Below, piece after piece: positions 20,875-51,780 of a stretch of DNA of 64,000 nucleotides. The notes below the pieces were generated by a model. The model worked only from the letters and a program-made list of their open reading frames with translations, made no database searches and had not been told where the DNA came from. This DNA is from a virus. Position numbers and translations under genes: made by a program. The stretch lies in the IMG/VR virus record IMGVR_UViG_3300050821_017626, positions 1 to 64,000 of that record. One strand, written 5' to 3'. The first letter of the stretch is position 1. Each line of letters opens with the position of its first letter.

Positions 20875-21392
20875 GCGCACATGCATGTCACCTGAAGCGG
20901 AAAAAAGACACTAATGCCGTGGGAATCGAGATGCACCTGTTTTTTGTGGTTAAACGCAATCAGAAATGAAAGGGTTAGGCACGGTCGATGGTTGCGTATG
21001 AGAACAAAAGTGCCAAAATAGCTCAAAACAGGGGACATGAGGGAAAAACGCGGTTTTGTGGTTATCTACAACTATCGATTAGTGCCTGTGATAGGCACGT
21101 CGCAATAGTTGTATGGCAGCAGTAAAACCGTGTTTTACTGAATCCCCTGTTTCTCCGTCTTTTCACCCCTATTACGTCTGTCTTTACATCTCGTAGTAAA
21201 AGTGTTATGTCATACAATATCATCACAATATCGGTTTGGCGCCTTTAATAGTTAGTTTTTTCAGGCGTGAGGAGGATTGTATACGGGTGTCACAGGAGTG
21301 GCATTGATTGCAGATAGGGACAAAAACGAGGTTCTATTTTTTATTTTGGGGATAGGTGCGTTTTCGCTATCAGGTGACATGCATGTGTGCGC
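20875..21392 (+). repeat. ~520-bp non-coding quasi-palindromic element, copy A
   Basis: Terminal inverted repeats (CACATGCATGTCACCTGA/TCAGGTGACATGCATGTG) and block identity with the reverse complement of 51261-51780. Confidence 0.85.
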
Positions 21393-21416
21393 GTAACATT
21401 ATAGCGAAAAATACGC

Positions 21417-21446
21417 CTAACAAAATGAGCCCCGGCGACGTATACT
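21417..21446 (+). promoter_or_regulatory. CTAACA-N17-GTATACT promoter (copy 4)
   Basis: Heads the rightward operon leading to TerS and the TerL ATPase. Confidence 0.7.
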
Positions 21447-21462
21447 GAGAGTAGGAGGAACT

Positions 21463-21897
21463 ATGCTGGATATACTAGAGTTGGCGGAGATCGAGGGCCG
21501 GGTGACCGCGCTTCCGGCGGGAGCATGGTTCGTGGGGCGGGACCCTGATCACACTTATTGGGTGCAGCGGGTGGTGAACTACGAACGGATTGCCAAAATC
21601 TATGCGCATGATGGTGCCGACAAAGCGGCAAGCGTTGCGGAGTTCATCGCTGCCTCGCGAACGGATGTGCCCCGGTTGGTGGAGGAGGTGTGTCGCCTCA
21701 ACCGGATTGTTGAGGAAGATGAGATTACCATTGCTGCGATCCACCAACAGAGGGATGATTGGCAAAAGTGCTGGGAGGAAGAAGCTGCAGAACGGGCGCA
21801 GTTGGCAGGAAGGGTTGAGCGGGATAACCAGCGCATCATCCAGTTGCTGGAGGAGAGCCTGGAGCTGCGCCGACAACTGATGGAGGCCAAAGCGTGA
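21463..21897 (+). CDS. Ead/Ea22-like phage protein
   Basis: AEFIAASRTDVPRLVEEV followed by a coiled coil; strong RBS. Confidence 0.55.
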   Translation: MLDILELAEIEGRVTALPAGAWFVGRDPDHTYWVQRVVNYERIAKIYAHDGADKAASVAEFIAASRTDVPRLVEEVCRLNRIVEEDEITIAAIHQQRDDWQKCWEEEAAERAQLAGRVERDNQRIIQLLEESLELRRQLMEAKA

Positions 21898-23599
21898 TTG
21901 CGGCGATCTCGATTTCCCTTGCAGTTGGCACGGCGCTGTGGGTGCTGTGGGCGGCGGCGATATTCCTGCTCTACCGGATGGGCGAGCGAGTGGCGGCGCT
22001 GCAGAAACAGGTCAACGAGGTGCAGGGGCAGGTGAATGCGGCGCTTACATCGGCGCAGGGAGGGCACCAGTTGGCTGAAAGGGCGTTGGAACTGGTGTCG
22101 AAGAGGAAGGAAGTGGACTTTGAGTGAGAGGGCGGTGTGGTGCGACGACTGTGATTGTATTCACCGATATGCGTTCTGTCATGCCTGTGGCGATTGGGTA
22201 AATATTCATCAGTGTGTGACCGTCTACAATCGATATCCTTGGTATCTGTTCTGGCGCCGCAAAACAATGACCTTGTGCGGGGAGTGCGTGGATCAGATGC
22301 GGGAGAATCTGCGGGCGCATGCGACGATGGTTTCGGAGGAATGGTGGGCGGATGAGAGTGAGTGAAGATAAGAATGGAGTTGGTTGGATGGGGTGGGATG
22401 AACCTGAGGGCCACCGAAGTTACGTGCGCTGCGGTAAATGTGGTCAAGGCGCGCGGGGATCGGCTAATTATTGTGCAAACTGCGGGGATAGATTGCGCTT
22501 TTCCTGCAGTAGCTGCGATCAGATTTTGCCCGAGAAAAGATCCTGCCGGCATTGTGGGTCCGAGATTTTTAAGACGGGCTTGATGGGGGCTAAATGTTCG
22601 ACTTGCGGGAAGGGTCAATAGTATGGTTTCCGATGGAAATGTCACGTTGGGACGATAAGAAGTGGATTGAATGGTGTTCGGATACGTACTGGCGATTGGT
22701 AGATGAGGGCACAACAATACCCAGTTTTAACTGGAAGCACCATCGGTGGTTACGGACCCAAAAGCGGCGGATGGAGTATCGGGGGAAGGTGAGGAGGAAG
22801 AAAAGGCGATGAGAGAGCGATTGCGAGAGACGTGTTGTAGTGTATGCTGGCGGTTTTTCCCTGCGCGAGAGCAGAAGACGCTGTGGAGGGAGAATTTTAT
22901 TGAATATCCGCTGACAGTGTGTCCCTCATGCTATGTTGCGAAGACACCAGGGGATCTGGAGAGGCCGATGGATAAGATAGTAGGGGGATCGTAGCGGGTT
23001 TGGAAGGTGGATGGGGCTTTGATAAGGGAGGGGGCGAATTGGGTCAGGATAAGGCGGCAGAACAATTGGATAGAAAAGTCCGGCAGCCAGATATCAATGC
23101 TCGGTACCGGGAGATCGAAAAGTCGGTAAATGTCAGTGTGCTGGATGTGGCCAAAGCGCGGTGCAGTGGGTGTCGCGGAAAGAGCGGGGGTGATGAAGGA
23201 CTAGTCTACTACGTTCACTGTTTCAGGGAAGAGAATCGGCCGATTCGGGCGTTGTGCAAGAAGTGTGTGGTGGAAATGGCTGGTGGGGTGGAAAAGGTCT
23301 ATGTCAGAGAGGCGATTGGGCCGTTCTTGCGGAAGTTTTGGGAGAAAGATCGGCGGGAGAAGAAGCGGAACGTGACTTTATCAGGGGTGCAGATTGAAGC
23401 GATGCAGAGGGGGAGAAAGAATGCAGCCCGAGAAGAGAGCGCTCTGTGAGGCCCTAAAGGAGATGGCCTGCGCCGCTACTGCGCTTGCAGCAGCCATCGC
23501 GCAGCGAGATACGAAGTGGAGCGAGCGACTGCGGGCGGAGAGTTGGCAGGCGCTGAATGAGGCGATGGATAAGGTGACTTGTTTGAGTGGAGTTCCACG

Positions 23600-24442
23600 A
23601 TGAGTGATGTAGTGTTGCATTTCAAAGATGAAACTTCGCAAGAATGTAAGAGCGTGTGCCATGCAATTGCCTTTTCAATGTTCTATGACGAGGAAAAGAT
23701 TGTCGACCGGATTGAACTGAAGGGCGAGCGGGTGTTTCCCGAGGGAGTGAAACCAGAGTACTGGCCACGTTATTGGGATCAGTGGGCAACGGCGGGGATG
23801 GGGCAGGGATTGGGTCGGAGCAAGTTTTTGCAGGAGAAGAAACGGATGATGGAACAGTATGCGCGGACGGAAGAGGAGGAATTGGCGGCGCTGGATGCCA
23901 GTATCGCGGAGCTTGAGGGACGGAAGCAGACGCCGGTCAATCGGAAAAGCTCGCTCATCATCTCGGCGCTTATGACTTCTTCCTCGATTGAGGAGGCGGC
24001 GGCGAAGGCGAAGGTGTCGGGAAAAACCGTGAGCACGCTGTTGCGGGACCCGGATTTCCAGCGGGAATATTATGCGGCACAGAAGATGACGACGGCGCAC
24101 GTCGTGATCTATCTCAAGAATATGTTTGGGGATGTGGTGCAGCGGCTTTATGAGATCCTGTGCAATGAAAGCCATGCGGTGAGTGCTCGGGTGCAGGCGG
24201 CAGGGTTGCTGATGCGGTATTCGTTTGAGATGATTCAGCGGGACGTGGACGAAAAATTCAAAGAGGAAATCCGCTACTTTATAGCTGAGATCAAGGCGCG
24301 CCAGCTAGGTCAGGGTCAGGTTCCTACAATGAAATTAATGGCGCTGGCGGAGGCGGGCGATGAAGAGGCGGAGTTCTATGGGGAAGCGATGGTAGCGGAG
24401 GTGGATAGTAGCGAAGGGATAGGTGGAGGGGTGGGCAGTTGA
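23600..24442 (+). CDS. Terminase small subunit (HTH-type)
   Basis: HTH SIEEAAAKAKVSGKTVSTLLRDPDF, ARVQAA, and overlap with the TerL start. Confidence 0.65.
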   Translation: MSDVVLHFKDETSQECKSVCHAIAFSMFYDEEKIVDRIELKGERVFPEGVKPEYWPRYWDQWATAGMGQGLGRSKFLQEKKRMMEQYARTEEEELAALDASIAELEGRKQTPVNRKSSLIISALMTSSSIEEAAAKAKVSGKTVSTLLRDPDFQREYYAAQKMTTAHVVIYLKNMFGDVVQRLYEILCNESHAVSARVQAAGLLMRYSFEMIQRDVDEKFKEEIRYFIAEIKARQLGQGQVPTMKLMALAEAGDEEAEFYGEAMVAEVDSSEGIGGGVGS

Positions 24443-25431
24443 AGCTCACGCTGAATGATCTGGATGTGAGTAAGCCGTCCGATGTTTTGGGGGTGCTGCA
24501 GGCGGAAAAGAAGCGTAAAGATTTATTGCGGGAGTTGAAGCTGGAGTTGCAGGCTGCTTCGACAACGGATTTTTCTGACTTTCAGAAGACAGGTCTCAGG
24601 ATTTTCAAGCGGCCGGATATATTTGCCAGGGAATATGTCAGGTGGCCAGAGGGAGAGAAGCTTACTGCCTATCAGGAGGAGCTTCTACTCGCTATTCCCA
24701 CCAAAGAGCGTATCGCGGTGCGGGGGCCGCGCGGGCTCGGAAAGTCCTGTCTCGCCGCCCTGGCAGTGCTCTGGTTCTGCCTGAGTCGTGAGAGTCTGGG
24801 GGTCGATTACAAGTGTATTATTACAGCCGGTTCAGCAAATCAGCTTCGTAGGTACCTTTTCCCGGAGATACGCAAGTGGGCACTTCGCCTCGATTTCGAT
24901 AAGATCGGCAGGCCAAAGTTCTGCGAACGGAGCGAGCTGCTCAAAGATGCACTACAGATGTCACACGGCGAGGCGTTTTGCGTGAGTCCCGATCAGCCGT
25001 CCTTGCTGGAAGGGCTTCATGCCTCCGAAGTGCTGGTCGTGATCGATGAGGCAAAGACGGTGTGTGACGAGATATTTCACAGCGTTGAGGGCTTCTTCTC
25101 ATCGGCGGGAAAAGACAGCGGCAAACATGCCTTCGCCATTGCGATTTCAACACCATCAATCCCAGTGGGAATGTTCTATCGGCTGCACAGGCGAGAGCCT
25201 GGATTGACCCACTGGCACGCGAGGCATGTCAAATTGGATGAGGCCCTGGCCGCAGGGACGATTACCCAGGAGTATGTTGATCGGCTGGCGGCGCAGTTTG
25301 GCAAGGATTCGTCCTTCTTCCAGCAGCAGGTGCTGGGCGAATTTGCGGCAGATGATGACAGCGGAATTATCTCCTTAGATTGGATACTAAGGGCGTGTGA
25401 TCGATACGAAGAGGAATTAGAGAATGCTTGA
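24439..25431 (+). CDS. Terminase large subunit, N-terminal ATPase domain only
   Basis: Walker A RGPRGLGKS, Walker B VVIDEA, coupling motif ISTP and VLGEF. It stops at IISLDWILRACDRYEEELENA, before the nuclease domain. Confidence 0.88.
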   Translation: MKLTLNDLDVSKPSDVLGVLQAEKKRKDLLRELKLELQAASTTDFSDFQKTGLRIFKRPDIFAREYVRWPEGEKLTAYQEELLLAIPTKERIAVRGPRGLGKSCLAALAVLWFCLSRESLGVDYKCIITAGSANQLRRYLFPEIRKWALRLDFDKIGRPKFCERSELLKDALQMSHGEAFCVSPDQPSLLEGLHASEVLVVIDEAKTVCDEIFHSVEGFFSSAGKDSGKHAFAIAISTPSIPVGMFYRLHRREPGLTHWHARHVKLDEALAAGTITQEYVDRLAAQFGKDSSFFQQQVLGEFAADDDSGIISLDWILRACDRYEEELENA

Positions 25432-25621
25432 TAACCAAAGTGGGCAGTCATCTCTTACCGTTTCCGAAGCCTCTGACCTGAAGATGATCGAGCCCTCCCT
25501 GATCCTGCGGGCCATCAAGACGGGGCGGCTTCCTGCAGTCGAGGAGGCATACGGTAAACGGAAACGCTATCGGATCGATTCGGATGACCTGGAGCGGTGG
25601 GTTGAGTGGCGGAAAGGCTGA
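25424..25621 (+). CDS. Excisionase-like HTH protein
   Basis: LTVSEAS...IKTGRLPA...YRIDSDDLERW. Confidence 0.7.
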   Translation: MLDNQSGQSSLTVSEASDLKMIEPSLILRAIKTGRLPAVEEAYGKRKRYRIDSDDLERWVEWRKG

Positions 25622-26500
25622 TGGCTTCCTGGACTGCAGTGAGCGATAAAGCTATCTGGCGCATTCATTTACACCTAGGATTTTATCGCGTGTTCGTGGG
25701 CGCAAACCTATTTGTCAGTGGGCGACAATGGACCTTCAACCTTGGCGTCCCCGGAGTTCATCTACAGTTTCTCTGGTGTAGGAAATAATGCTTGCCTTTT
25801 GGCATTGGTGGATTGGTCCTTGGGCGTATGAACCTGTGTGGTTGCATATGTTTGGTCTTTGGGGCATGTTCAAATTGGGGCAGATTACGGGTAGGTGCGG
25901 GAGGTGACGCGATGTTGGTTTACGGCATTCAAATCGAGCCCGTTAAGGGCTGGGTCGAGCAGTTCGAGCATCCCGAGGGCGGAGCGGTCGTATTCATGAG
26001 CGCTCGGGATGCTCTGATGGTGGCGCAAACGCTTTACGATCTGCTGAAGGTCCCGGTGACGGTTTACTGGGCAGAAGCGGATCGGAATGATTTCGCCTGG
26101 AAAGGGAATGTTCTGGATTTGCGTGAGTATGTGTCGCTGGAGCAGGAGAGGCCGAAGGGTTAGTCATCTCCAACCGTAGTGGGCAATATCCCAAAAACCA
26201 AGGCCAACAAGTGATAGATTGGCAAGGATCAGAGACCATACCACGATACAGAAGCAGACCCAGTGGTGGCGGGCGGCAGCGTGAATGCCGAGCTTCATGG
26301 TTTCCCATAGCCATTGGAGTGATTTCATGCCACAACCTCTTCCGTTCGGGTCACTTTCAACAGGCGATATTTGTCGTGGCCTTTTTCCGAACGCAGTTCT
26401 TCGAGTTTTGCAAGAGCCGGTTTCAAGTCGAAATATAGGAATACAGTACCATCCCAAATTTCGTGTTCCTTATCATCCCACCTCGTCTCGATGATGTATT

Positions 26501-27109
26501 TTACCATGTGATTTCCTCCAGTCGGGCGATGAGCCGATCTCCGGCCTCGCGGTCTTCCACTGTCAATGCGGCTTCTTCTTCTTCTTCGAATGTCAGACAC
26601 GCCTTCAGATAAGCGCGGATGACGCGAAGTTCCTGAGGCGTTAGGGAGAGGGTGATGCTTTGGTCTTTTTGCGCCCCCCTCGCCTCCGGTTCAAGCGGTC
26701 GATCTCTTGTTGAAATAATTGGCGATGGCAGGTCTCGCACAGCCATTGGGATGGTTTGTTCGGATGTCTGACCTGCCATGTCGCTGGTTGGCCGCACGGG
26801 CAGTCTCGTTGGTTGGACATTTTTCTCCTTGTTCTTCGATCCTTTGGGACGGCCCCGCCGTTTGGGAGTGGGCTCGGGTGTTTCTTCGACCGACGTGGGC
26901 ACTACGCTGATAGCCTGGCCGATGGCGCGCTGCGTGGCCATATCCTGCAGTTGGCGCAGCTCCTCCTCCAAGTAGGCGGGAAACCGAGCGTTCTTGCGCA
27001 GGCTGGATTTCTGCTGCAGTAAGTCGATGCGGCGGGTGTTCAGGATTTCCCAGTTCACTTGCTCTCGTTCCCGGTCGTGATTGGGATATTCCGCTGCCAC
27101 TCCTTCCAT
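26501..27109 (-). CDS. AT-hook-containing protein
   Basis: PKRRGRPKGSKNK. Confidence 0.55.
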   Translation of the reverse strand: MEGVAAEYPNHDREREQVNWEILNTRRIDLLQQKSSLRKNARFPAYLEEELRQLQDMATQRAIGQAISVVPTSVEETPEPTPKRRGRPKGSKNKEKNVQPTRLPVRPTSDMAGQTSEQTIPMAVRDLPSPIISTRDRPLEPEARGAQKDQSITLSLTPQELRVIRAYLKACLTFEEEEEAALTVEDREAGDRLIARLEEITW

Positions 27110-27859
27110 GCGCAGTGATGGAAGGGGAACGGATAGTTTGGCAATATTAGGACTTGCGTTGCTGGGCAGCCGCAGCGGCAGCGTTGCCTTTGGCTTGTTC
27201 TTGGAGCCCTTGGGGCGACCGCGCCGAGGTGATTGATGCAGCGGCGATTCCTCGGGCTCTGAAGGGATGGGGGGCCTTCGGTCGCGGGAGTGGGTTGGAG
27301 CCCCAGGTTAAGCGGCACAGTCATATCAGACGGCTCGATAGTCTGGTGGATTCGGTCGGCGAACATGGTTGTGGCATCCAGCAGCGAGTACGGGCCGCGA
27401 ACGAGGATCTCCTCGCCCCATGAGATGATGGTCTGGCCTAAATAGGGTCGGTGTAATAGGTAGGCTCGTCTGCGGTGGGCAGGGATGGCGATTTCCCACA
27501 GTTCGTATTCTTCGTTGAGGTTGAGAAGGTCCTGGATTTCCTCCAGCAATGGGTTCGCGCCCATGTCGACTGGATTGGTGGGACGCAGAGTGAGGCCGGC
27601 GACTTCCATTGGTTCACTTGGGTATTGTTCTTCCATTAGTATCACCACCTATCAGGCTTGGTCCGAAAGTATTCCGCTCGTAAATCTTCAGCGCTCTCCA
27701 GCATCGCTAGGCGCGTTTCGAGTTCGTCAAGTTTAGAACTCAAGTGGGCAATCGTTTCGTCGGCCGCTTGGGCGCGATCCTCGCTTTTCTGCAGTCGGTC
27801 GTTCAGCCGGGCGATGGCGGAGCGTGTTGCTATCGCTTCAAGAAGACGTTCGTCGGACA

Positions 27860-28063
27860 TTAGAGTTCTTCCTCCTCCTCAAACCCATCAAAGATACCCT
27901 GCTTATATTTTTCGGGATATTGCCGTATCCAGTCTGCCGTTGCGTCAAAGCCTAGTTCTCCGGCAATATCGGCGACGCGAGTTCGAACGAACATGTTGGT
28001 GAGGCCGGATTCTCGGACGGCGTTTAAACCTTCCAGGACTTCGGCTGTTACTTGGATGGGCAT
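27860..28063 (-). CDS. DUF5049-like protein
   Basis: LNAVRESGLTNMF motif. Confidence 0.6.
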   Translation of the reverse strand: MPIQVTAEVLEGLNAVRESGLTNMFVRTRVADIAGELGFDATADWIRQYPEKYKQGIFDGFEEEEEL

Positions 28064-28312
28064 TATTCTACCTCCTCAATTTGACATTCGTGGGTGTATA
28101 TTGCCATTAGTCGTTTTCTCCCGTAAACTGGCCGCAGAGTGGGCAGTGTTTTTCGCGTCGTATTAGTTCTTCGACAATGTTGCTGGCGAGATAGCAGCTT
28201 TCCTTTTGCCAAGTGTCGCCTGTTTGGGGACACCAATCACCAAGCAACGTATCAATGGCGTCAAGCAGATCGAGCTTTGATGCTTTCTCAATGTCGTGTC
28301 GACTGGTTATTT

Positions 28313-28603
28313 TCATTGTTCTTCTCCTTCTTGACTTCCTGCAATCTTCGTGCCATGCCTTTCAAACCAATCGAGCAACATGAGCCTTACCTGGCCATTG
28401 ATGCTCCGGTCACCTTTTTGGGCTTGCAGACGTATCTGATTGGCCAGCCAGCCGGGGAACTGGATGCTGATTGTCACTCTCTCGGCATCATCATAAGGCA
28501 TGGCAGGGTCGCGCGTTCTCCTGCCTCTAGGATTGATGGAAGGGCGCGGCTCCGGCGGGTCAAGAAGATTCCTAAGTTCTTTTGGAAGGGTTGGGTATTT
28601 CAT
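28313..28603 (-). CDS. Arc-like ribbon-helix-helix regulator
   Basis: ISIQFPGWLANQIRLQAQKGDRSINGQV. Confidence 0.6.
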   Translation of the reverse strand: MKYPTLPKELRNLLDPPEPRPSINPRGRRTRDPAMPYDDAERVTISIQFPGWLANQIRLQAQKGDRSINGQVRLMLLDWFERHGTKIAGSQEGEEQ

Positions 28604-28835
28604 TTGGTTGCCTCTTTGTCTGTAGTGGGCAGTTCGCTGGCGTTGTGTGGGTTGCACTGGGGACAGATCCAGCCTTTTCGAGTATGCTGCCAGCCTATCT
28701 CGCGCGCTTCCTCTGCGGCCATCTTGTCCGTAGGGGAAAGGAGTTCGTAATGTTCTAAACAATCATCACAAGAGATGCTTCTGGTAATTTGAATGTGATA
28801 GGCCATTGGGGTACCCCTTATAGAGTGGGCAGTGT

Positions 28836-29849
28836 TTAACTGCGTAGTTCCTTTTTCTGTGTAGTGGGCGGATACTTCGCCGCGTATTGCTCGGCCGTGA
28901 TGTGCTGCTCGATCTCGGCATAGGGAATGCGCGGCTTGTAGTCAGACAGGTTGGGCGTCAGACACTGGCCGGTTACGGATTGGGCGTTGACACGAAGAAC
29001 TTGGTAAAAATGACGGTCGCTCATGATGTAGTCGCCCTTCTTGATGGCGGCTTTCTTCCAGGCGTCCGCTTCCGAGATACCTTTGGTGATGGTGCCGGCA
29101 CCGGCCGCTTCGATCTGCTGGCGCCAGTAGTCGGCCTTTTCCTGGTATTCGGCGACGAGATTGGTATAACGAAGAATGGCTGCCTGGCGTTTCTCGTCGC
29201 CCCATTGAGGGTGAATGGAAGGGGCGATGGATGGATTGTATTCTGGATTGCTCACGCGGTCAAGGTGACGCTGGCAGACGCGCCGTTCCGCTTCCGCTTC
29301 CTTCAGTCGGCGGTGCATGAAGGCAACGTCTTTATCTTCAGCTTTGAAGGAGGAGGAGAGGGCTCGGCCTCGGTAATATTTTGCTTTGTCTGCTTCTTCG
29401 ACGGCTGATCGTAAGGCATTGTCCGCCTTTTCGAGCGTCCTTCTGTGCTTTCTTTCAGAATAATGTCCGACGAGAATTGGTTGACCAAATGGGATTGGGT
29501 CAAGAATGGCGCGAAATCTGTCGTGGGCAGCTTCCGAGCGGGCGCTAGCGTTCTCGGAATAGGTGCGGTATCTATCAGTCCGCTTGGCTGATCGAGCTTT
29601 CGCGCTGTCGACTCGATCTGCAAAGGTTGTCTTACCGTAGTGGGCAATGGCTTCGAGGAGTTCCTCGGTCGGGTCGTGCCAGAAGGAGAAAGCGCCGCGC
29701 CATTTCTTGGCACCGAGCGCATAGAGCGCATCTTCGTATCCTGCAGTCGTGCCGGTGACGTTCCATACGGGCCGAGCCGCCTTGCCGGGTTTGCTTGGCG
29801 TGGTCATTGCTTCGGTAACAGTAAGGCCGTAGTCGGATAGGGTAGCCAT
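28836..29849 (-). CDS. DUF3560-domain protein
   Basis: IPFGQPILVGHYSERKHRR signature; strong RBS. Confidence 0.75.
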   Translation of the reverse strand: MATLSDYGLTVTEAMTTPSKPGKAARPVWNVTGTTAGYEDALYALGAKKWRGAFSFWHDPTEELLEAIAHYGKTTFADRVDSAKARSAKRTDRYRTYSENASARSEAAHDRFRAILDPIPFGQPILVGHYSERKHRRTLEKADNALRSAVEEADKAKYYRGRALSSSFKAEDKDVAFMHRRLKEAEAERRVCQRHLDRVSNPEYNPSIAPSIHPQWGDEKRQAAILRYTNLVAEYQEKADYWRQQIEAAGAGTITKGISEADAWKKAAIKKGDYIMSDRHFYQVLRVNAQSVTGQCLTPNLSDYKPRIPYAEIEQHITAEQYAAKYPPTTQKKELRS

Positions 29850-32800
29850 TGGATTGCCTCCTAACGGTTATAGTTGTGTTTGATTGGTGTGTTTGATGGA
29901 CTTGATTTTACTTTGTTGGCTGCGGCAGGAGAATCCTCTCCGTTTCGGGATCACGTGTTTCGGCAATCATCTTCAATCCCTTTCCTTCACCTAGAGGAAG
30001 GTATTCCTGCTTCCATATTTCCCCCTCCGGTGTCACGCGCCAACAGCTTGTCGTGGGTGATTTCTCGCAGTAGGTGTGGAAGTCAGTGCCAATGGTAACG
30101 AAGCGGTCCTTGTTGTCTCGCAGAGCGTTTGCATGGGCACGCTTGATCGTTTCCTTGAAGTCTTTGATATACATCGGTCCTTTTCTCCTGTGGGCGTTGT
30201 TCTATTCGTTCCACTGGTTAATTTGATCGTAGAACAATGTCCGACTCCTAATAGAGCTTAATACTGATGGTGCAAAGGGCGAGCAGGATGATGAACATCA
30301 GGGTGTTGAGGAACATGGGTATTCTCCTGTGAGTTATTTCGATTTCGGATAGGTGCCGAAGACTAATTGAGCATCGCGCTTCTTGTAAATGCGCTTCGAT
30401 AATTCTCGTTCGGCCGTCTCTTTGGTACGAAAGGAACGGGTGACTTCTTGAGTTCCGGTCAGGTAATTCGCATACCGGATATACCAGATGCCATGGGTAT
30501 TCATCCTGTATTCCTTTCTAATCGAAGTGGGCAGTCAATCGGCGATAACTTCGGCAATGCCTTTGTCTAGTGCTTCCTGTGCAGTAAGCCCCCATACAGG
30601 TTCGAATGTGTATCCATCCTCAAGGAGAATGCTTGTTCCGAAAGGTAGGAATAGCAGTGTATCGCCATTTCTGGCTTCGGTGAGAAAGGCACCTTTTATC
30701 TTCACGCGAATGCGACAAGGGGAGGTGTAACCCTGAATGTGGCCGCGTGTGGCGTTGCTGTAGTCTCCGTGTTGATCAAGGGACCCCCAGGAGTAGCCGG
30801 TGCCTTCTTCCCCCATGTATTGGCCTTTCGTGGTTACATCTTCCTCACCGATGTATTCCCCGTCTGAATTGAAAGTGTCGCCTTCGGCATAGCTTTCTAC
30901 GAGTTCGAAGTCGCTATACTCAAATATACGAGCGATCAGTCGGCAGCCATTTCCCATGGCGAACTGGCGAGCTTCTGCTATGTCCTGGGTTGTGTAATCG
31001 GATACGGAATTGCCTTCTTTATCCTCAAAGGCGTAGACTTCGATGCTCATTCGGTTTCCTCCTCGGCATAGGTCTCATCTGTCAGGAAGGAGTCGAAACT
31101 GTCTTCTTCGACGATGGCTTTTGCGTCGCCTTCATGCACCATAGCGATGGCATCTTCTGCGAATTCTGCTTCGACGCGATACATAACCTCATGGAGTTCC
31201 TTGGCGTGGACGTAAAAGACTGGCATTGTTGTTTCCTCGTTGTATAGGGTTGTTAGGGCTTGTTAGGGGTCAGGTATACCAAGAGTGGGCAAGATTGTTA
31301 GGGGTTTGATCCCCAGTTCGGCGCGTAGTCGGTCCTTCTCCCGTGCGTAGGCATCCTCGGTGCCTGCTTGCGAGATAGAGTAGTATTCGGCGATCTTGTT
31401 CTTAAGGAAGTGATAGCCTGTTGCTGTCGGTCCTTCAAGGTAGATGTTTAGGTAAACACGCAGGTTTTCGGCCATTTCTTCGAGTTCGTTGGTTTCATCT
31501 GACGTGGGCAGCATTTATCCCTCCTTTGCAGTAGCGATCCACTCTTCAGCTATCTGCAACCAGTCTACACGCCCTAACGCGGCTGTTAGGAGTTCGTGGG
31601 CCAGGTAATCGTCGTCGGTTTTGCAGGCGGCTTCTCTGCAGTCAAGGGTAAGCCAGCGACCTTCTACGTATGCTTCCAGTTCGTCGGCAAGCTGGCGAGA
31701 GGCAGCGTCGTCTGTGGGGTTCTCCTCAAGGACTGTTAGGGCCAGGTCTCTGGCATCGTCATATTGTGGGCGATTGTTGGAGAGGAAGAGGGCACAGTGG
31801 AATGTGAAATAATTGGAATATCCTGAGACTTCGGTTTCTGGGGTCATTGGTTGGTTCTCCGCCTAGCGCTCGGCCAAACGCCCGGAGGGTGATTGGCGAG
31901 AGTGATAGGCAACAGTGGGCAGAGTTATTGTGCTGCATTCAACAGCGCGCAGAAGGAGAAGGGCGGATTAGGCAGTTCGATGGCATCGAGCGTTTGGATA
32001 TCGAAGGGTTCGCCGGCATTGCCGAGCCGGGCGATACCTTCTTCTTCGTCCCCATAGTCGGGTAGATCTTGGTCGGCAACAAGGAATTGATCTAGTTTGT
32101 CATTGTCTACGGCTTCGTCAAAGGCATCCTGGAGGCAGGAGGCGAACACAATGGCGACAGGGAATCCATGGGCGTGGATAAGGAAAGGTCGCACATTGTG
32201 CGGATTGTATTCGCCTGCAGGGATGTAATCCGAAGGGTTGGCAACGTCGGCGTCGGAGAGGGTGAAGTCGAGATTGTTAATGGTAATAGTCGTGGTCATG
32301 ATTGGCCCCCTTTGGTTGATTGGTGGCAGCAGTGGGCAGGATCTAGCGGCCATTAGCATTGAGAAGTTCGGCAATGACATGGGTTATCATGTCTGCTTCT
32401 GTGGGACTGGTTTCTCCTGCTTTTTGGATATAGATGAAGGGGATACCATTCCGGTAGATGTTCCTCCCTGGCTCGACAGTGTAGCGGAAATTTAACTTCT
32501 CGGTTGCTTCCTTGGCTGTTCGGGAGGTGAAGGGTAGAGTGACACCATTGGCAATGGAATGCCATGCCCATCGGTCGCCGAGCCAAACCTTCTTAATTTG
32601 TCCCCCTTTGACTTTTCGTGGCTCTAAGTTGTGATTGATGTTCATATTTATTCCTCGTAATTACCACAGTGGGCAGTGTTTCCCGCAGTGGGCAGTTCGC
32701 TTGTCAGTAGGTCGCGACATGCTTGGTCGGCTTCTCCGTAGTGGAGGAAGGCAGAGTCGCCTTGCATTCCACAGATGGAGGCGAGTTTGTCAACGAAGAG

Positions 32801-33696
32801 ACGGATGATGGGGTGATTGTTGCGCCATTCGGTTCCTTCATTCAGTCGGTTGGCTTCATCGTTGACAGCCTTCACCGCTTCGAGGAAGGAGCGTGCTACT
32901 CCCGATAGGTTGCAGGCGTTCTGAACTTGGAGAGCGTCGCTGGCGGCTTGCTGTAGGTTAGTCATGGTTTAGTTCCTCCCGAAGGTTGCGACATTGGATT
33001 TCAAGTCGCATGACTTGAAATAGGAGTTCAGCCGTGTTTGTGGGCTGATTGGCGCGGATGGCTGCTTCAATTGAGTCGAGTTCGTGGCGGATGGCTGCTA
33101 TATTGTCGAGTGACCATTTCTTGTAAAAGATTGCGTTAGGCATGGTTGGCTTCCTGTTGATCGGGAAGGGCGTAGAAAGATGCCCACACTGTGAGAGCAA
33201 TAGAACCAAGCGAGGAGTTCGCTATCTGTTCCCTCACGTATTCGTTCCCGTCAGACGTGAGAGGGTTCTCAAGAAAAAGGTTGCAAGAGTCGCAATGTTG
33301 GGGACAGTCCGCTTCTCCCCCGCCGTTAGAGAATGGCCCTTGAGGGAAATCTTCGCTGTCGTCCATGTTCAGTGGACGAGGGTCTGAACAACGCTCTTCG
33401 GTCGCTGCGAGTCCGCAGTCCTCACAAAGTAAGGCAGATTTGTATATGTATGCATTCATGGAATTTCCTCCAGCCATTCTTCGGAGCGGATGATACGAAC
33501 TTCACTGTAACGGTTTTCGGAGCGGTATCGTTCAGCTTGTGAGATAACGACCGAGCGGATATGGTCGGAATAGATGTTGTTTGTCCAACAGAGAGAGCCA
33601 TGCTCCCGTACGTCTATCCTCCACCATGTTTGTTTGTCTGGTTTCCAGTTTGGGTTAGGTTTGGTCATGGTTTGTTAGGTTCCTAATGAATAATGG

Positions 33697-34269
33697 CTAG
33701 AGTGGGCAGATCGCTTTTGTTTGCTCTTTGACGCAGTATTCTGCTGCTTCCCTCGCTTGCTCTTCGCAGTAGGTAAGCCCATAGAAACCCCAACAGGAGT
33801 CAAGATGGTTTCCGTTGCTGTCCTCTACGGTGTAGCCGTATACCTCTCCTTGGAGAAACTGATTGTAGGTTTCGACTTCGCAACGCAGGACACCTTCGGC
33901 GGCTTGCTCCTTCTCCTCTGGCGTCATGGCAGCGTTGACGTATTCCTGTTTGACGACATGGATGGGAGCGAAGATGAAACCTACTTGTCCACTGTCCCAT
34001 GGACAAGAGAAAGGTTTGGTGGAGATGGTCAAGCCACTATGGTCGTACAGGTAAAGGGGGAGAATGATGGTATCCTGTCCATGGTCGGAGCGAATGGATT
34101 CCTCTAGATCCTGCCACGAGGAGAAGTCTCCAGAGGAGTAGCCGTGTTTCTTGTCGCCAAGTTCGTACCGTTTGTGGAAGCATACCATGGTCCCTAGGTT
34201 GTCCCATTCACGAGGGGAGTCGGCGTCAGTGTCCTGTTCAATCTTGATGGTCAAGCCTTTGTATAGCAT
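33697..34269 (-). CDS. Conserved acidic phage early protein of unknown function
   Basis: PREWDNLG, LPLYLYDHSG, CPWDSGQVG and DSCWGFYG motifs. Confidence 0.6.
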   Translation of the reverse strand: MLYKGLTIKIEQDTDADSPREWDNLGTMVCFHKRYELGDKKHGYSSGDFSSWQDLEESIRSDHGQDTIILPLYLYDHSGLTISTKPFSCPWDSGQVGFIFAPIHVVKQEYVNAAMTPEEKEQAAEGVLRCEVETYNQFLQGEVYGYTVEDSNGNHLDSCWGFYGLTYCEEQAREAAEYCVKEQTKAICPL

Positions 34270-37043
34270 GGGTTAGTCCTCCTCGGGAGAGAGCAGCGTA
34301 TCAACAATATCACAGGCAAGGGAGAAGCCGGCATCGGCCGTTACCTCGTCAACATAGAGTCGATGAGTAGGGGGCAGATCGGTTAGAGTGGGCAGATCGT
34401 AAAGACGCCGAAGGAGAGTGGGCAGGGATTCGGGAGAGACGGAACAGCGGATGCCTGTTGCTAGGACAGCTCCTTCAGGGAATCTACTGCAAGGATCTAG
34501 ACGGCGCTCTATGGGTTCGTAGGTATCGGTTTCCTGGCGATAGCACGCCTCAAGATGGGAGTCGATGCCTTGATTGACAGCGGCAATGACGGCCGCAGCG
34601 TCGGAACTGACGAGTTCCATGCGGTAGGGCTTGCCTTGCATGGCCGATCTGATCTGTTCGTAAGTGACGGTGCCATGGTCGTCAATGTAGCCGATTATGT
34701 TGGTGTCGGTCATGGTCATGGTCGGTTCCTCTTTCTAGCCGTTGTCAGACGACCGATAGTAGTTTGGGCATGGCCACACCTCTGTGTTCTTTGGCAAGCG
34801 GGATATCCCTGCCCATTCTTTGGCGCGTTCCCTTGCTTGTGCCTCCCCTACTGGGGAAGAGAAGCGGAACGTCATGGCATTCTCTGATTCGGGGAAGCGA
34901 ACCCACCATAAGACGCAAGTGCCGAACATAGTTGTGTCCTCCTTTCCGAGTCGTGCGGTGATCAGCCGACCTTTCGCCATGTGAGTGTTGACGCGGCCCG
35001 TGCCTCCTCCACTTCTTGACAGCGTAGAAGCTCTTCCTCGGTCGCAAGGCGGGCGACATAGGCGGTGCGGGGACCATGAGCGCCCGTGAGCATGTGGGCG
35101 CGCTTCTCGGCCGTCTCTTGGTCGTACAGATCGGGTGTGGCCATTCGGCGAATGAGCTTGCCCCCGGAGTAGAACTGCGCTTCAACGACGAAGGTCGGTT
35201 TCATCGAGTCCACCCTTCCCCGGTAGGAGCCCAATCGAGTCCGCCGGTATGGCGGCTGTTGAGAAGATGGGCCGCTAGGCGAGCGAGCCACGCGAAAGGA
35301 AAGCGGTAGATGGGACGGCCGTCGGATGGGCTGAAGACTTCATAGCGCATGTCAAGATCCTCCTCTTAGGCGCGTTAAGCGAATTGTATAGGGCGGTTTG
35401 GAGTGCAAGCTGGACAGAATCCCTCGGAACTCAAGTCGCTTGTGGCAGCGTAGAAGGTGCATCCTGCAGCGTTACACTGCAGCAGCAGTTCCCCGTCAAC
35501 GGCCGCTAGTGCCTCCTCACGGGTGGAGTATACTTCGTCGGTCTCCTCTTGGTCGGAAGATTTCCAAACAATCCAACAGTCGTGGAGACCTACCGACATA
35601 TCTCCTGCTTCGAAGTAAATCTGCGGGTAGCCGTACGGGTAGCATGTGCCGAGTGGGTAGTAAACGACGTTCTTAACATGTGAAGCGCGAATGAACTTCA
35701 CCATCAGCGAATCTCCACTTGGAACTTGGTCGGGACGGCAAGGAAGCGCTTGTCCCATCGCTGCATGAAGGCGCGCATTTTGGCAGTAGGGGAGAAGGAT
35801 GGTCCGGTTCCCCAGTGATTGATTGTGACGGAGCATAGGTCCGGCATGGCGTAAACTCTGGTTGTCGAGAGGTACTCTCGGATGAGAGCGCAAGCGATGG
35901 GACAGTTTGAGGGGGATACACCTCCTTCTTGCTGACGGAGTTCAGTGGCTCGGTCGATATCCTGCTGGGTGACTGAGATGTTACGCTTCATGGTCGGTTT
36001 CTCCAGTGTGTATAAGTGTGTATAGCAGTGTGTAGGGTTACTTGCCTGTGTCGGGTGGGTTTCCTTTACATCCGCCCGCGTACCACATGGTACGGCCTTC
36101 CCAATATGAGCAACGCTCATAAGCTTTTTCTAAAGATTCTTTCAATCCTCTGTTTTCCTCCTGAAGGGCAAGTACTTGGTCAATCGCCTTGTCGGCCATG
36201 GCCTGGTAATGTCTGGCTTGATTTTTTGCATCTTGCAGTTCGAGTCGAATCGTTTCGTTGTCCTTCATGGTGTCCTCACAAAATCAACAGTATGAATGTG
36301 TAACCCGTCCTTTGAACGGATGGGAGTAACCTTCACTTGCCAACGTTGCCCACATTTACAGGTTCGCTTGACGACTAAAGTAGCTTGTGACATGAGAGGA
36401 GTTCCCGGCAGTATCCGATCACAATCGGGACACTTAAAGCATACTTTCGTAGTGGGCATCTTCAGAGTCCCCTGTATGGGTTTCGAGTGGAAACATTGAC
36501 AACCAGAGTCTCAGTCTGAGATTCAAAGGTTCTATTCGTTGTATCCTGTGTCCAATGAATTCCTACCCCCTTTCAAGCCACACAACGTGGCCCGCGAGAA
36601 GGTTCCGGCGATGGGCCATCAGCTCTTTGGGGGTGAAGAGGGAGGAAGCAGGTTCCTGGCCGACGCCAGACCAACAGAGATCCGGTTCGCAGATTTCGCA
36701 AGTGGCCTCATCCTCACAGCCGCAGCCGTAGTCACAGGAGAGGCAATGGGAGCGTTCCTCGGCCATGGCGTCAAGGATTGCGACTTCAAGCTTCGCCTTA
36801 TGGGTCCGGTTGATTAAGGTATGATCTTCCGGGTAGGCCAGGATAACAGCGACCGACGAGGGTTCGCAGTCGCGGTGCCAGTAGGAGGCACAGTAGTACG
36901 TATAGCGGCCCATGGTCAGTTACTCCAAACCGCGTTAGCGGCGAAGGTCGAAAGAAGGTAGCCGATAAGGAAGCCAGAGAGAACGACGGTGAGATAGCGG
37001 AACATGGTTGTGCCTTTCTGCAGTAGGTATCCTGCGACTCGTT

Positions 37044-37288: not shown

Positions 37289-37297
37289 GGTGTCGTT

Positions 37298-38008: not shown

Positions 38009-38065
38009 GTGCCTTGCTCTTCGTTATACGCGGGCTTGCAACCGCCGTCGGCCGAGTTAAGGCGC
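38009..38065 (-). ncRNA. Type P1 twister ribozyme
   Basis: GCCU-U^AA-CUCG-GC-CGACG-GCGG-UUGCAAGC-CCGC-GUAUAA-CGAA-GAGCA-AGGC. P1, P2, P4 and both pseudoknots (UGC/GCA, GC/GC) can be formed. Confidence 0.82.
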
Positions 38066-38924: not shown

Positions 38925-38953
38925 TTGACTTTGGCACATTTCTTGCCTACAAT
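38925..38953 (+). promoter_or_regulatory. sigma70 promoter whose spacer is a sigma54-type motif
   Basis: TTGACT-[TTGGCACATTTCTTGCC]-TACAAT. Confidence 0.65.
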
Positions 38954-40424: not shown

Positions 40425-40676
40425 ATGAACGGTATCAGAAAAGAAGTAACTGCATTTGCCCAAATAATGGAGGAGATGCTTCAACAAAACGACTATAAAG
40501 GTGGATGGTCTAAATGTAACCCACAGTGGCTTCTGATGCGGTTGCAACAAGAAGTTGAGGAGTTAGACGCAGAACTTTCCGTTACTCCTTTTAACCAGGA
40601 AAACATTCGCAAGGAAGCGGCTGACGTTGCGAATTTTGCTATGATGGTAGTTGATGTTTGTGGAGGGCTTGAATGA
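40425..40676 (+). CDS. MazG-like all-alpha NTP pyrophosphatase
   Basis: LQQEVEEL...EAADVANFAMM (ExxE...ExxD). Confidence 0.65.
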   Translation: MNGIRKEVTAFAQIMEEMLQQNDYKGGWSKCNPQWLLMRLQQEVEELDAELSVTPFNQENIRKEAADVANFAMMVVDVCGGLE

Positions 40677-43617: not shown

Positions 43618-43703
43618 GGACGCCCCCCGAGGCGACGCGCCGGGGAGAAGGCCCTTGGAAGCGGTTCTCTAAGGCGGTCGGTCTTCCTCGGGGGCGTCCC
43701 TTT
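43618..43703. ncRNA. Rod-shaped ~85-nt hairpin, possible small RNA
   Basis: GGACGCCCCCCGAGG/CCTCGGGGGCGTCC closing stem with inner helices; adjacent to TTGACT-N16-TATAAT. Confidence 0.4.
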
Positions 43704-45104: not shown

Positions 45105-45623
45105 TCAAGGATTCACCCCCAGAGCGGCACGCAACTTCCGCGTTGCCTTGTAGACCACGTTGTAAACCCGCTTGCGCGTCACTCCTTCTGCAGTCGCCAC
45201 CTCTTCTCCCGACATTCCTTCCAGGTAGATGAGTCGCATCATTTTCTGCTCGAACGGGTTGAGGGCCGACTGCAGGACCTGGTTCCAGCCTATTCGATCA
45301 ACCAGTTCGCTGGAGAAGTCAGCCATCCGAGGCTCACCAACCTCCCCACAGAGGGATTCGATCTGAACAACCTCAGCGCTGCGCTTCTGGCGCGATTTGT
45401 GGCGCCAGAAGTTTTTGATGGATGAGCCCGCACCTACATAAGCCACCGACTTCAACTGCTTGCCGGACTGTTTCTCTTCCGCGACTGACTGGAAAGCGCC
45501 GAGCAGCGCCTCTCCGATGAGGTCGTCGTAATCCGGGTGGTCGCCCCACCCTTTCAGGTGTGAAAGGGCGAGGCGCACGTATTCTTCCTGTTCCGGGGTA
45601 AGACCTACGGCACGGTAGCCCAT
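45105..45623 (-). CDS. ECF-like sigma factor
   Basis: DDLIGEALL (region 2) and LNPFEQK..YLEGMSGEEVA...KLR (region 4). Confidence 0.6.
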   Translation of the reverse strand: MGYRAVGLTPEQEEYVRLALSHLKGWGDHPDYDDLIGEALLGAFQSVAEEKQSGKQLKSVAYVGAGSSIKNFWRHKSRQKRSAEVVQIESLCGEVGEPRMADFSSELVDRIGWNQVLQSALNPFEQKMMRLIYLEGMSGEEVATAEGVTRKRVYNVVYKATRKLRAALGVNP

Positions 45624-46174: not shown

Positions 46175-46659
46175 GGTATCGTTCCTTTGTTGTAAACGTC
46201 TTGTGATAGTCGTTCGAAATAGAGAGGATGAGCCAGTCGTAGGTAGGTTCTCCCTACTCGATAGTGGATGGCAAACAGGAAATTGTAGACGGGAGTTGGC
46301 CAGCAATCCAGGTCGAGAATCCAGTTGATGAAACCAACTGCAGAACTGGTAAGGGTGATAGCAGCGTGTTTCATTACTCCCATTTCTGAAATACATCGCG
46401 GCCACGCACACTATTCTGCAGTTGTTCCCGCGCTGCGGCCTCGCGCTCGCGGCGGCGGTTTTCGGGCCAAGTCACAACGGCCCAGTAGACAACGAACAAA
46501 ACAAGAACTGAAATCAGAAATAGGGCGAATTCCGTAGTTTGTATCACCAGGTGGTCAAGTCGGGTCTGTGCCAGGTAAGGGGTTGAAAACGCTTGTTGGA
46601 TACGGGTCAGCATGGTTCTCCTCAAAGGAAAGAGCGCCACTCTGGCGCCCTCAGTAGTC

Positions 46660-46689
46660 AGTATACGCCCTTGTCCTGCGCTTTGTTAA
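46660..46689 (-). promoter_or_regulatory. TTAACA-N17-GTATACT promoter (copy 5)
   Basis: Exact motif, intergenic. Confidence 0.75.
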
Positions 46690-47307
46690 CCCCTTATTCA
46701 CCCTTGACATAGGTAATTGTCTTCCGGGATTGCCTCCACGTCCTGCTGCTCCATCAATCGCGTCCGCTTGCTGATCTCATAGCGATTGCCCTGCGCGGCC
46801 CACTGCGCCGTACGGGCCTGAACAAGGGAACTGTCGAGGGTTATGAAGCCTCCGACCTTCCTGTCTCCCTTGAAAAACTCCACCACATATTCTTCTTGCA
46901 TCATGCTTCCTTCTTCAAAATGATCCGTCGCTTGTTGGATTGAACAACTTCCCAACAGTCGGCTCCCAGGACGTTGAGGGCGGTACATAGGTCATCAATA
47001 CCACAGACACTCACCCCAGTCTCGTCATACCAGCCGACCTCATCCTCGCGGCAGAGGACCTTGTAGCACCAGCGCGGCATCTAGGGCCTCCCTTGCAGCC
47101 GGCGTCCTTGCCGACGAGGAACTGACGGAATCTGTCTACTGCAGGAACCGGGTGTTGCTGCACGTCGCACTAACCCAGGTTTGCTCACCAAGATAGGGGC
47201 TCGATGTTCCATTGTGTCTTCGCCCAAGGCGCGCTCGTTCCAAGCTTTGCAGATTGCCCGTGAGTAGGCTAAGAAAATCTCATTTATCTCGTGTTGTATT
47301 GGATTGA

Positions 47308-50300: not shown

Positions 50301-50505
50301 CGTCCGCATTGCCACTGGGGCCTAGCGTCCCTAAGTATGGCAGGTTCGCATCCCCTTTCGGTTCTTGCTGATCCAGCCATGGTTTGTATTCTTCCAGGTC
50401 AATCATACCCACCAAGCGCTTTCTTCGGGGTCCCACATAGGACGCCCTTTTTCGCATGGCTCGTTCCAAAAGTCCCAATGGCTTTTTAGAAATCGGAATA
50501 GCCAT
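47308..50505 (-). CDS. Cluster with about 8 small proteins sharing an acidic leader ending L-x-Q (47308-47544, 47817-48032, 48029-48304, 48282-48497, 49078-49293, 49280-49462, 49986-50174, 50176-50505)
   Basis: LDQ, LYQ, LYQ, LQQ, LSQ, LYQ, (YAAQ) and LDQ, each followed by a Gly/Pro-rich then Lys/Arg-rich tail. Confidence 0.7.
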
Positions 50506-50769
50506 CTCATAGTTTATGTCCCTCGTTATATTGTACCCTTTTTCGGCAACGAGAGCAAAGCCAAGCGCCCTTCAAATCCATTCTAAAGACCATGTGAACT
50601 TTTTTCTTGCACTGGTCGCATTTTATGTCAGGTAAAGAACTTTCGGATCTTGTGACGCCACTTCCAGCCATTGTGCTCCCACTCATCGTACAGCCACACT
50701 ACAACGAACAAAAGCCCCACCACAAAGAGTATGGAGAGGCAGAGGCCAACTGCAAGTCCGAGGACGACC

Positions 50770-51168
50770 TCAAGGGTTTTCAGGAAGAGCATCGGGTTCT
50801 TCGACTGCAATGGGATAAGACTTGTCTTCGAACCAATCCGACGGATAGCGCTGGCGGAAATCACTCGCGTGGGAAAGCAAGTGCTGGGCCACGCCCTCGG
50901 CGATGGGAACTTCCAGGAGGTATTCTGGGGAGAGGGTCTTGTCGGGGAGGATCACCTGCAGGGAGACATGGGGCGTTCCGGTCTCGGGGCAGTAGCGCTG
51001 CCGCGTCAGGTAGGTAAAGGTCGGTCCCTGGTTGGGCAACTGCGCGGCGAGCGCAGCAGCCTCGGCCTGGCGCTTGCGCATTTCTAGCAGTTGGGTCAAC
51101 GTGGTTTCCTCTTCAGGGGTGATGCTCATGAAGAGATCACGAAGGGCGGTCATGCGGTCGGCATCCAT
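50770..51168 (-). CDS. Hypothetical protein (start probably 51168)
   Basis: AAGGAG RBS before MDADR; the longer track ORF runs into element B. Confidence 0.55.
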   Translation of the reverse strand: MDADRMTALRDLFMSITPEEETTLTQLLEMRKRQAEAAALAAQLPNQGPTFTYLTRQRYCPETGTPHVSLQVILPDKTLSPEYLLEVPIAEGVAQHLLSHASDFRQRYPSDWFEDKSYPIAVEEPDALPENP

Positions 51169-51260
51169 GAAAGCTTGGGCTCCTTTCGAAACGGAAAATA
51201 TACAGGGCATTATACCGTCCAAAGGCAAGGTTTGGCAACGTGTTTTTGCATATAGAATAC

Positions 51261-51780
51261 GCGCACGCACGCATGTCAGGTGAGGGAGAAAATACACCTA
51301 CACTCTCGTTGAAAAATAGAGGACCAGTTTTGGTAGCATAAGCCATCTACGCTGATTATCTTACCAACGTATAAGGATACGCCTCACGCCTGAAAAACTC
51401 ACTTTTAAAGGCGTCATTGTCGTAGTTGTAATAATATCGTCTGACATAACACTTTTACGATATGGGGTATGTTACAGTTGTAAGAGAGTAAAAACAGGTG
51501 ATTCGGGAAAACACGGTATTACTGAGTAAATACAACTATCGTTTTAGGCACGGATTATGCCTAAAACGTTAAGAGTAAATAACCACAAAACTGACATTTT
51601 CTGATTCCGCTTTGGGAGGACCTGTTTTCACGGATTTTCTCAATTTTGTGGTTAAAGGGAACTAACGGCCGTGCCTGAAGTGGGTTGTAACGATTGGGGA
51701 TAGACACAAAATTGAGGTGCATGTTGATTCCCACAGCATAGCGGGATGTTTTCTCTTCGCCTAGCATGCGCGCATACGCG
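51261..51780 (-). repeat. ~520-bp non-coding quasi-palindromic element, copy B (inverted relative to A)
   Basis: Shares 17-bp and 16-bp identical blocks with copy A at identical spacing, plus many shorter blocks in the same order. Confidence 0.85.

Follow-up and report, generated by a model that had tools for sequence, protein, structure and literature searches.

Two paralogous, fold-conserving noncoding elements flank a 30-kb segment of a phage genome

What do two related noncoding stretches of about 520 bp, set in opposite orientation some 30 kb apart, do for a large double-stranded DNA phage? The pair lies in IMG/VR virus record IMGVR_UViG_3300050821_017626, a linear sequence of 96,261 bp with an estimated completeness of 79%, and the window analysed here is its first 64 kb. 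An initial annotation, made from the letters of the window, had described two diverged quasi-palindromic elements and offered three readings of them: twin replication origins, recombination sites that flip the segment between them, or a paralogous structured RNA or single-stranded DNA (ssDNA) element. Element A (20872-21396, plus strand, ~525 nt, 43.4% GC) lies inside a plus-strand gene chain, between a gene end at 20868 and a promoter-like site that begins at 21417. Element B (51257-51784, minus strand, ~528 nt, 42.8% GC) fills the gap between two back-to-back promoter-like sites that face outward. Both elements are noncoding and AT-rich, at ~43-44% GC against 54% for the genome.

A paralogous pair of noncoding elements

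Aligned with MAFFT, A (plus strand) and the reverse complement of B are identical in 328 of 513 aligned columns (63.9%), with 27 gap columns. Their local alignment score of 137 compares with 20.5 ± 2.6 for shuffles of B (z = 45), which places the similarity far above chance in the shuffled-control comparison that the initial annotation had proposed; as a further control, six other intergenic regions of the same phage (40-55% GC) score only 17-26. Additionally, blastn within the genome pairs A with B at E = 1e-19, and nhmmer run without its speed filters recovers A and B as the sole copies in 96 kb. All frames on both strands of A and B are full of stops, no frame is open in both copies, and the indels between the copies, lengths of 1 and 10 nt among them, are not multiples of three. 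A coding gene is thus ruled out by stops in every frame.

Two blocks of the alignment are invariant. Specifically, the 17-mer GTAAAAGTGTTATGTCA lies at 21196-21212 (plus strand) in A and, as an exact match, at 51442-51458 (minus strand) in B, and the 16-mer TTTTTCAGGCGTGAGG, which in A includes the 3' strand of a hairpin CGCCT...AGGCG, lies at 21257-21272 (plus strand) and, again exactly, at 51382-51397 (minus strand). The gap between the 17-mer and the 16-mer is 44 bp in A and in B. The coordinates and shared blocks of the initial annotation, these positions and the 44-bp gap included, were reproduced. The shared blocks of at least 9 nt, namely GTTTTGTGGTTAT, ATAGTTGTAT, GTGGGAATC, the 17-mer and the 16-mer, occur nowhere in the 96-kb record outside A and B, and this absence led us to reject the idea that the conserved blocks are general promoters of the phage. 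The 8-mers are not unique: ATGCACCT has one extra copy and AGGCACGG about eight elsewhere in the record. The sequence TTATGTCA, which had been called XerD-arm-like, adjoins neither an XerC arm nor a spacer, and the record encodes no tyrosine recombinase; a dif/Xer site was discarded on these grounds. Taken together, the pair is real and statistically solid: two paralogous noncoding elements that conserve a fold.

Searches beyond the record suggest that this element family has not been described before. At gathering thresholds, the whole window gave no match to Rfam 15, whose families include GOLLD, ROOL, OLE, group I/II introns, 6S, RNase P and tmRNA, and each element searched against Rfam at E <= 10 returned only noise at 14-22 bits, from eukaryotic microRNA and long noncoding RNA models and from the bacterial small RNA RAGATH-26 (14.5 bits). 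A group I or II intron was rejected on the lack of an Rfam match and on the divergent orientation of the gene upstream of B. No homologue was found by blastn of A and B against 50,697 GenBank phage records, nor with the two-block pattern in metagenome and genome collections, and all matches of an IMG/VR pattern search (exact 16-, 17- and 20-nt blocks and the two-block pattern) proved unrelated by blastn/nhmmer. The loci reached through neighbouring proteins were distant or very short (1.3-1.8-kb contigs) and held no element, which is also absent from the whole genomes of two distant phages. A phage clade does exist: for the exonuclease encoded at 18058-19305, 21 relatives were found that share 41-67% identity with it, and several lie on contigs of 40-124 kb.

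A fold kept by compensatory change

Folded as single-stranded RNA and compared with dinucleotide shuffles, the forward strands (plus for A, minus for B) give z-scores of -7.3 for A and -8.7 for B, and the reverse strands -8.2 and -4.4; the forward strands folded as DNA give -7.4 and -5.2. The forward alifold consensus reaches -97.9 kcal/mol, where column-shuffled alignments give -41.1 ± 5.4 (z = -10.6), and has a structure conservation index of 0.554 against 0.308 ± 0.037 in the shuffled alignments, whereas the reverse-strand consensus reaches -70.2 (z = -7.0), with an index of 0.448 against 0.277 ± 0.042. Among 107 predicted pairs, 13 are changed on both sides and still pair, as against 0-2 when the partners are slid by 1-3 columns. 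These figures support the paralogous structured RNA or ssDNA element of the initial annotation. The slid-partner control is biased, because the fold was derived from the two sequences being tested, and the closing helix, P1, was therefore tested independently.

In A, the 5' arm of P1 (20874-20902, plus strand) pairs with a 3' arm at 21362-21391 (plus strand) that contains the conserved TGACATGC and GTGCGCGTA; in B, the 5' arm (51750-51778, minus strand) pairs with a 3' arm at 51262-51291 (minus strand), as placed by the inverted-repeat and pair analyses. The reference for the test was the set of 28 pairs in A's own terminal inverted repeat, scored in B. B retains 26 of the 28 despite 19 changes, 14 in the 5' arm and five in the 3' arm. 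Each of the five changes in the 3' arm has a complementary counterpart in the 5' arm, which makes five double compensations, three of them by transversion. Under simulated independent substitution, such retention has P = 1.5e-5 at a transition/transversion ratio of 2; it arose in 0 of 200,000 simulations at a ratio of 1 and has P = 7e-4 at a ratio of 6.

A second helix, formed by ATGCACCT with AGGTGCGT/AGGTGTAT, is predicted to stack on the ~28-bp P1, followed by a branched quasi-palindromic central domain around a hairpin and by a 3' domain with the invariant 17- and 16-nt blocks. The central hairpin of A (21067-21113, plus strand; core GTGCCT-gtgat-AGGCAC) sits in the quasi-palindromic domain at ~21000-21188. 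That of B (51537-51571, minus strand), with 14-nt arms that are 93% complementary, occupies the same alignment columns, inside a fixed 38-nt spacer between two invariant blocks, and is rebuilt through three double changes, each altering both sides of a pair. Both the terminal inverted repeats, which co-vary, and the internal hairpin, noticed at the outset, are thus borne out by the fold, inverted-repeat and P1 pair analyses. The span is 460 nt for P1, ~150 nt for helix 4 and ~50-90 nt for helices 5-6. Since the helices have different centres, a simple cruciform extruded from duplex DNA cannot form the predicted fold, which needs a free single strand. Taken together, these findings indicate that A and B keep one predicted multi-helix fold via compensatory changes.

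The same terminal repeats could be read as those of a miniature inverted-repeat transposable element, a non-autonomous element with ~30-bp terminal inverted repeats that inserted twice. The length of ~520 bp, the lack of an open reading frame (ORF) and the ~30-bp repeats would suit such an origin. However, there are two copies only, 36% diverged from each other, and none in the phages, metagenomes and genomes searched; no target-site duplication is visible at A or B, and no transposase is present. Moreover, the ends differ between the copies yet remain complementary within each, the opposite of ends held constant for one transposase. We therefore regard a transposon as the least credible of the explanations weighed here.

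Transcription context and a possible structured RNA

Just after A lies the promoter-like site CTAACA-N18-TATACT (21417-21446, plus strand), of the class TTAACA-N18-(G)TATACT. Just after B lies a sigma70-type promoter-like site, TTGCCA-N18-TATAAT (51209-51238, minus strand), which reads into the 30-kb segment, and a second one, TTGCCA-N17-TACAAT (51787-51815, plus strand), abuts the 5' end of B and points away from it, with a predicted leaderless start at ATG 51822; the divergent gene that begins there (51822-52151) is real. Upstream of A, the plus-strand chain 19317-20868 is made up of small ORFs whose stop and start codons overlap. Its codon score is better than that of the minus-strand ORFs, and one of its genes matches DUF7167 (E = 1.8e-18). 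Each copy is co-directional with the operon that follows it, so that A and B stand at the heads of two gene blocks whose directions converge within the 30-kb segment. They therefore probably matter for the running of the phage early programme, whether they act as RNA or as DNA.

The TTAACA-N18-(G)TATACT class was seen upstream of at least six operons, that of A included (2836, 8031, 13679, 21440, 41679 and 46666), and its copies at 13673-13701 and 21418-21446 have 14 identical bases in common. The class is possibly read by one of the three sigma factors of the phage.

The compensatory changes suggest that A and B act as a folded single strand, RNA most likely. We tentatively favour the reading that they are a new large structured RNA, with a closing stalk of the RNase III type, at the head of the two converging gene blocks. 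In this proposal the element would be transcribed, for A by read-through from the upstream plus-strand operon 19317-20868, and the long P1 stem would act as a double-stranded RNA processing stalk, as stems cut by RNase III do in rRNA and in T7 early transcripts. Cleavage in P1 would then set free a stable, ornate RNA and part the upstream message from the downstream one, and the invariant 17- and 16-nt blocks may be protein-binding or tertiary-contact sites. An RNase III stalk is a stem of at least 20 bp that closes the excised RNA, and P1 offers 28 pairs in A and 26 in B. RNA as the active molecule, its strand, its processing and its role we infer; transcription through the P1 arms of A, specifically, would follow from the operon context.

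Because A lies inside a plus-strand operon, a forward-strand RNA of A is expected. The consensus energy, the structure conservation index, the z-scores of B and the excess of G-U in P1, whose non-Watson-Crick cells read on the forward strand are seven G-U and two A-C, likewise favour, without proving, the strand that is co-directional with the downstream operon. G-U versus A-C counts were dropped as the basis of a strand call, as they are not decisive.

Several observations weigh against a structured RNA. The covariation comes from a single pairwise comparison, between two sequences of one genome, and the fold was predicted from that same pair; the reverse strand and single-stranded DNA also fold significantly. 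In whole-molecule folds, the strand-neutral G-U versus A-C counts (23 vs 11 and 24 vs 19) lean toward the forward strand only mildly. The two promoter-like sites that flank B both face away from it, and the nearest upstream gene runs divergently. A forward promoter for B was sought among three recognisable classes and none was found; this missing promoter is the main weakness of the RNA proposal. No terminator was found downstream of A or of B. Finally, the changes in outer P1 are all transitions that preserve a strict alternation of purines and pyrimidines, which could reflect a constraint on DNA.

Two further promoter candidates were rejected. One is of the sigma54 type, placed at the 5' edge or at GTGGGAATC-N3-ATGC; it has 3-4 mismatches, and its start site would cut off P1. 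The other, on the reverse strand at CGTATA, has a poor -35 box and poor spacing.

The alternation lies at the ends of the elements. Specifically, a perfect alternating purine-pyrimidine run, a Z-DNA-prone sequence type, covers 17 nt at the 5' end of A (20872-20888), 19 nt at its 3' end (21377-21395), 20 nt at the 3' end of B (51257-51276) and 19 nt at its 5' end (51764-51782). These four runs, rich in CG and CA/TG, are the sole ones of at least 17 nt in the 96-kb genome, where 0.72 would be expected, and the A/B substitutions within them are all transitions that keep the alternation. Compensatory change in RNA helices also usually goes by transitions, so the alternating ends do not settle the choice between RNA and DNA. 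They leave room for a supercoil-driven Z-DNA role beside the promoters, which they may play.

The ends bring in another explanation, in which each element is a double-stranded control region: a 520-bp spacer between promoters whose terminal repeats are paired upstream sites of one protein, brought together by looping, or whose Z-DNA ends absorb the negative supercoils of divergent transcription. B exactly fills the gap between back-to-back promoters, the P1 arms lie just upstream of the -35 boxes, and the conserved TGACA of the 3' arm itself resembles a -35 box. The unit 'element then promoter' recurs in both copies, with homology that extends into the promoter region, and the rarity of the four alternating runs, with only transitions inside them, fits as well. 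A protein site, however, leaves unexplained the five joint arm changes, three of them transversions, and the covariation of the internal helices. Additionally, A has a promoter on one side only, and the many different motif pairs with inverted partners resemble helices, unlike an array of one or two binding sites. We consider a control region of this kind quite unlikely.

Comparison with known RNAs bears on the structured RNA that we favour. Among large, ornate noncoding RNAs, GOLLD, ROOL and also OLE are known from phages and prophages (PMC12286853). Like them, A and B are several hundred nucleotides long, rich in helices, noncoding and phage-carried, and the function of those RNAs, too, was long obscure. 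Unlike them, A and B have no Rfam match even at permissive thresholds, no tRNA genes nearby and only two copies, both in the same genome. Noncoding RNAs of such size and structure are rare, and the few that are known (GOLLD, ROOL, OLE), several of them phage-borne, took years to understand; if the RNA proposal holds, a 525-nt fold carried in two copies by one phage would add a family that carries a built-in comparison for structure probing. If A and B are replication or supercoil-sensing devices instead, they would represent an unusual DNA function encoded in a branched fold and tied to strand asymmetry.

RNase III processing stalks are known in rRNA operons and in T7 early transcripts. Copy A resembles them in that a stem of ~28 bp, built from sequences ~460 nt apart, brackets a predicted structured RNA in a polycistronic unit; copy B differs in having no recognisable upstream source of a transcript, and cleavage here is a proposal. 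The lambda nutL/nutR and HK022 putL/putR sites are RNA sites of 20-70 nt downstream of their promoters. A and B are similar as paralogous cis elements in opposite orientation, one per early operon, that flank a central genome block, and differ in being 525 nt long and upstream of the recognisable promoters.

Strand asymmetry, inversion and the genome around the elements

The structural evidence put forward for an RNA would serve equally for fold-dependent twin priming sites or origins, in which each strand folds when single-stranded or makes a structured primer transcript, synthesis starts toward the middle of the segment and two forks converge near 40.7 kb. The fold is significant with DNA energy parameters too, action as ssDNA needs no promoter and would remove the promoter problem of B, and the copies lie on opposite strands, as expected of polar replication elements. 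The initial annotation had seen the plus strand turn from C-rich to G-rich near B, and this switch is genuine. The cumulative GC skew curve dips to a V-shaped minimum exactly twice, at 17,419 and, 0.5 kb from B, at 50,722, and has its maximum at 40,674. In most genes of at least 300 bp at 17.6-36.9 kb, third-codon GC skew is +0.25 to +0.56 in plus-strand terms on either coding strand, which excludes a transcription-strand effect; outside this region it stays mostly within about ±0.25. Of the 28 plus-strand copies of the motif GTGGGCA (often AGTGGGCAG), 24 fall within 23,782-36,452 (12.7 kb, with genes of both orientations), and the minus strand has only seven genome-wide; this array looks like a Chi- or KOPS-like polar signal, or like the mark of a domain that is long single-stranded. 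The pattern of skew fits forks, or another polar process, running rightward from ~17-21 kb and leftward from ~51 kb.

On the other side, the first skew minimum lies 3.4 kb to the left of A, with no sharp onset of skew at A, and the forward strand of B is itself C-rich, not G-rich. With one minimum 0.5 kb from B and the other 3.4 kb from A, the skew gives twin origins only partial support. There are no tandem iterons, TTTTGTGGTTA being present as two direct copies 112-121 bp apart and as inverted partial copies; A and B, though AT-rich overall, hold no long AT-rich unwinding tract, and no initiator gene was identified in the record. By eye, the P1/P2 helix strands contain no double-stranded -35/-10 mimic, and the two conserved G-T pairs of helix 4 would be less favourable in DNA. 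Thus, of the twin origins first suggested, the half near B agrees with the skew and the half near A does not; we hold such origins to be possible but on the whole unlikely.

Precedents for two origins and for folded single strands exist. SPP1 carries oriL and oriR, two origins in one phage, one of them in a long intergenic region bracketed by transcription signals, with direct repeats bound by gp38 and an AT-rich unwinding element (PMC6316719). As with oriL/oriR, A and B are related noncoding elements, rich in AT, that lie kilobases from each other in a single phage genome; they differ in having no tandem repeats, the conserved feature here being a branched fold with compensatory changes. The RNA II primer of ColE1 is ~550 nt long. 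For Frpo single-strand promoters, folded ssDNA can recruit RNA polymerase (PMC11541004). A and B are like ColE1 RNA II, the single-strand origins of rolling-circle replicons and Frpo as orientation-specific folded elements of ~150-550 nt, in which structure more than sequence starts priming or transcription. They differ in that B lacks a primer promoter, no -35/-10 mimic was found in the folded stems, and the replicon is a large double-stranded DNA phage and not a plasmid that enters or replicates as ssDNA.

A more specific form of this idea joins the ends to the fold. A and B would be matched, fold-dependent, one-directional start sites that point inward and work through a primer transcript or a folded displaced strand, with forks that meet near 40.7 kb and Z-DNA-prone ends that sense promoter supercoiling. 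We give it little weight. If true, it would account for the strand asymmetry that is independent of gene orientation and for the one-strand GTGGGCA array, and would represent an origin architecture new to large double-stranded DNA phages.

The inverted arrangement of the copies and their exact 17- and 16-bp cores also recall recombination sites: a crossover in the identical cores of 16-17 bp would invert the 30-kb segment. A large serine recombinase, with Resolvase, Recombinase and Zn_ribbon_recom domains, is encoded in the record at 13964-15742. The cores, however, have no dyad symmetry around a central dinucleotide, and this recombinase lies outside the segment, 5 kb from A and 35 kb from B, with flanking gaps of its own that could hold an attachment site; no small serine recombinase of the invertase type and no tyrosine recombinase was found in the record. 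Because the promoters lie inside the segment, flipping would not change the pairing of promoters with genes. It would also leave the conservation of a fold over 520 bp unexplained, the homology being far more extensive than a crossover site needs, and frequent flipping is hard to square with the strong, one-sided skew at 17-40 kb. Sites for flipping the segment, one of the three initial readings, thus gain no positive support, and we regard them as very improbable.

The serine recombinase gene (13964-15742, plus strand) lies within a 13-kb stretch between the ATPase half of the large terminase (24439-25431, plus strand) and an ORF at 11751-12431 (minus strand), a candidate for the nuclease half that has no Pfam match. 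Inversion of 12432-25431 would place the ATPase half and the candidate nuclease half end to end on one strand; an inverted repeat was looked for at the two junctions of the split terminase and none was found.

In the wider genome, the left 19 kb hold mostly minus-strand genes for replication and regulation, among them a Toprim primase fragment, an AAA ATPase, a helicase, an MT-A70 methylase, an exonuclease, two sigma factors and a DnaN-like clamp. The region at 19-55 kb holds many small genes of unassigned function, a third sigma factor (45105-45623) and the ATPase half of the large terminase, and from 55 kb on structural genes, the portal gene included, lie on the plus strand. One sigma70-family gene overlaps the end of the DnaN-like sliding-clamp gene (4588-5469 and 5463-6584, both minus strand), an overlap reminiscent of how T4 couples its late transcription to the clamp.

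A sigma54-type -24/-12 motif, TGGCAC-N5-TTGC, is enriched in the genome: with no more than one mismatch allowed there are 16 matches, where shuffles give 5.1 ± 2.4. At least six of these lie ~25-210 nt upstream of gene starts in the right orientation, four of them within 25-55 nt, and the sites include 10592-10654, 17067-17081, 28341-28355, 38932-38946, 54312-54326 and 55285-55299. The record has no enhancer-binding ATPase (PF00158). The use of sigma54-type promoters by a phage would be unusual.

Three further loci carry borderline matches. The gene at 54329-55231 (minus strand), which directly precedes the portal gene and has a sigma54-like motif upstream, gives matches to LAGLIDADG endonucleases at or just under the Pfam cut-offs. 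At 38011-38063 (minus strand) the model of the type-P1 twister ribozyme, RF03160, matches below threshold, with 37.5 bits where the gathering score is 67.2 (E = 3.9e-6 in a 1.7-kb search). The gene at 58182-61166 (plus strand), with internal DNA repeats at ~59.3-60.6 kb, encodes a 994-aa protein with a weak Pfam match, under the cut-off, to the catalytic (C) domain of diphtheria toxin (23.7 bits against 25; E = 4.3e-5).

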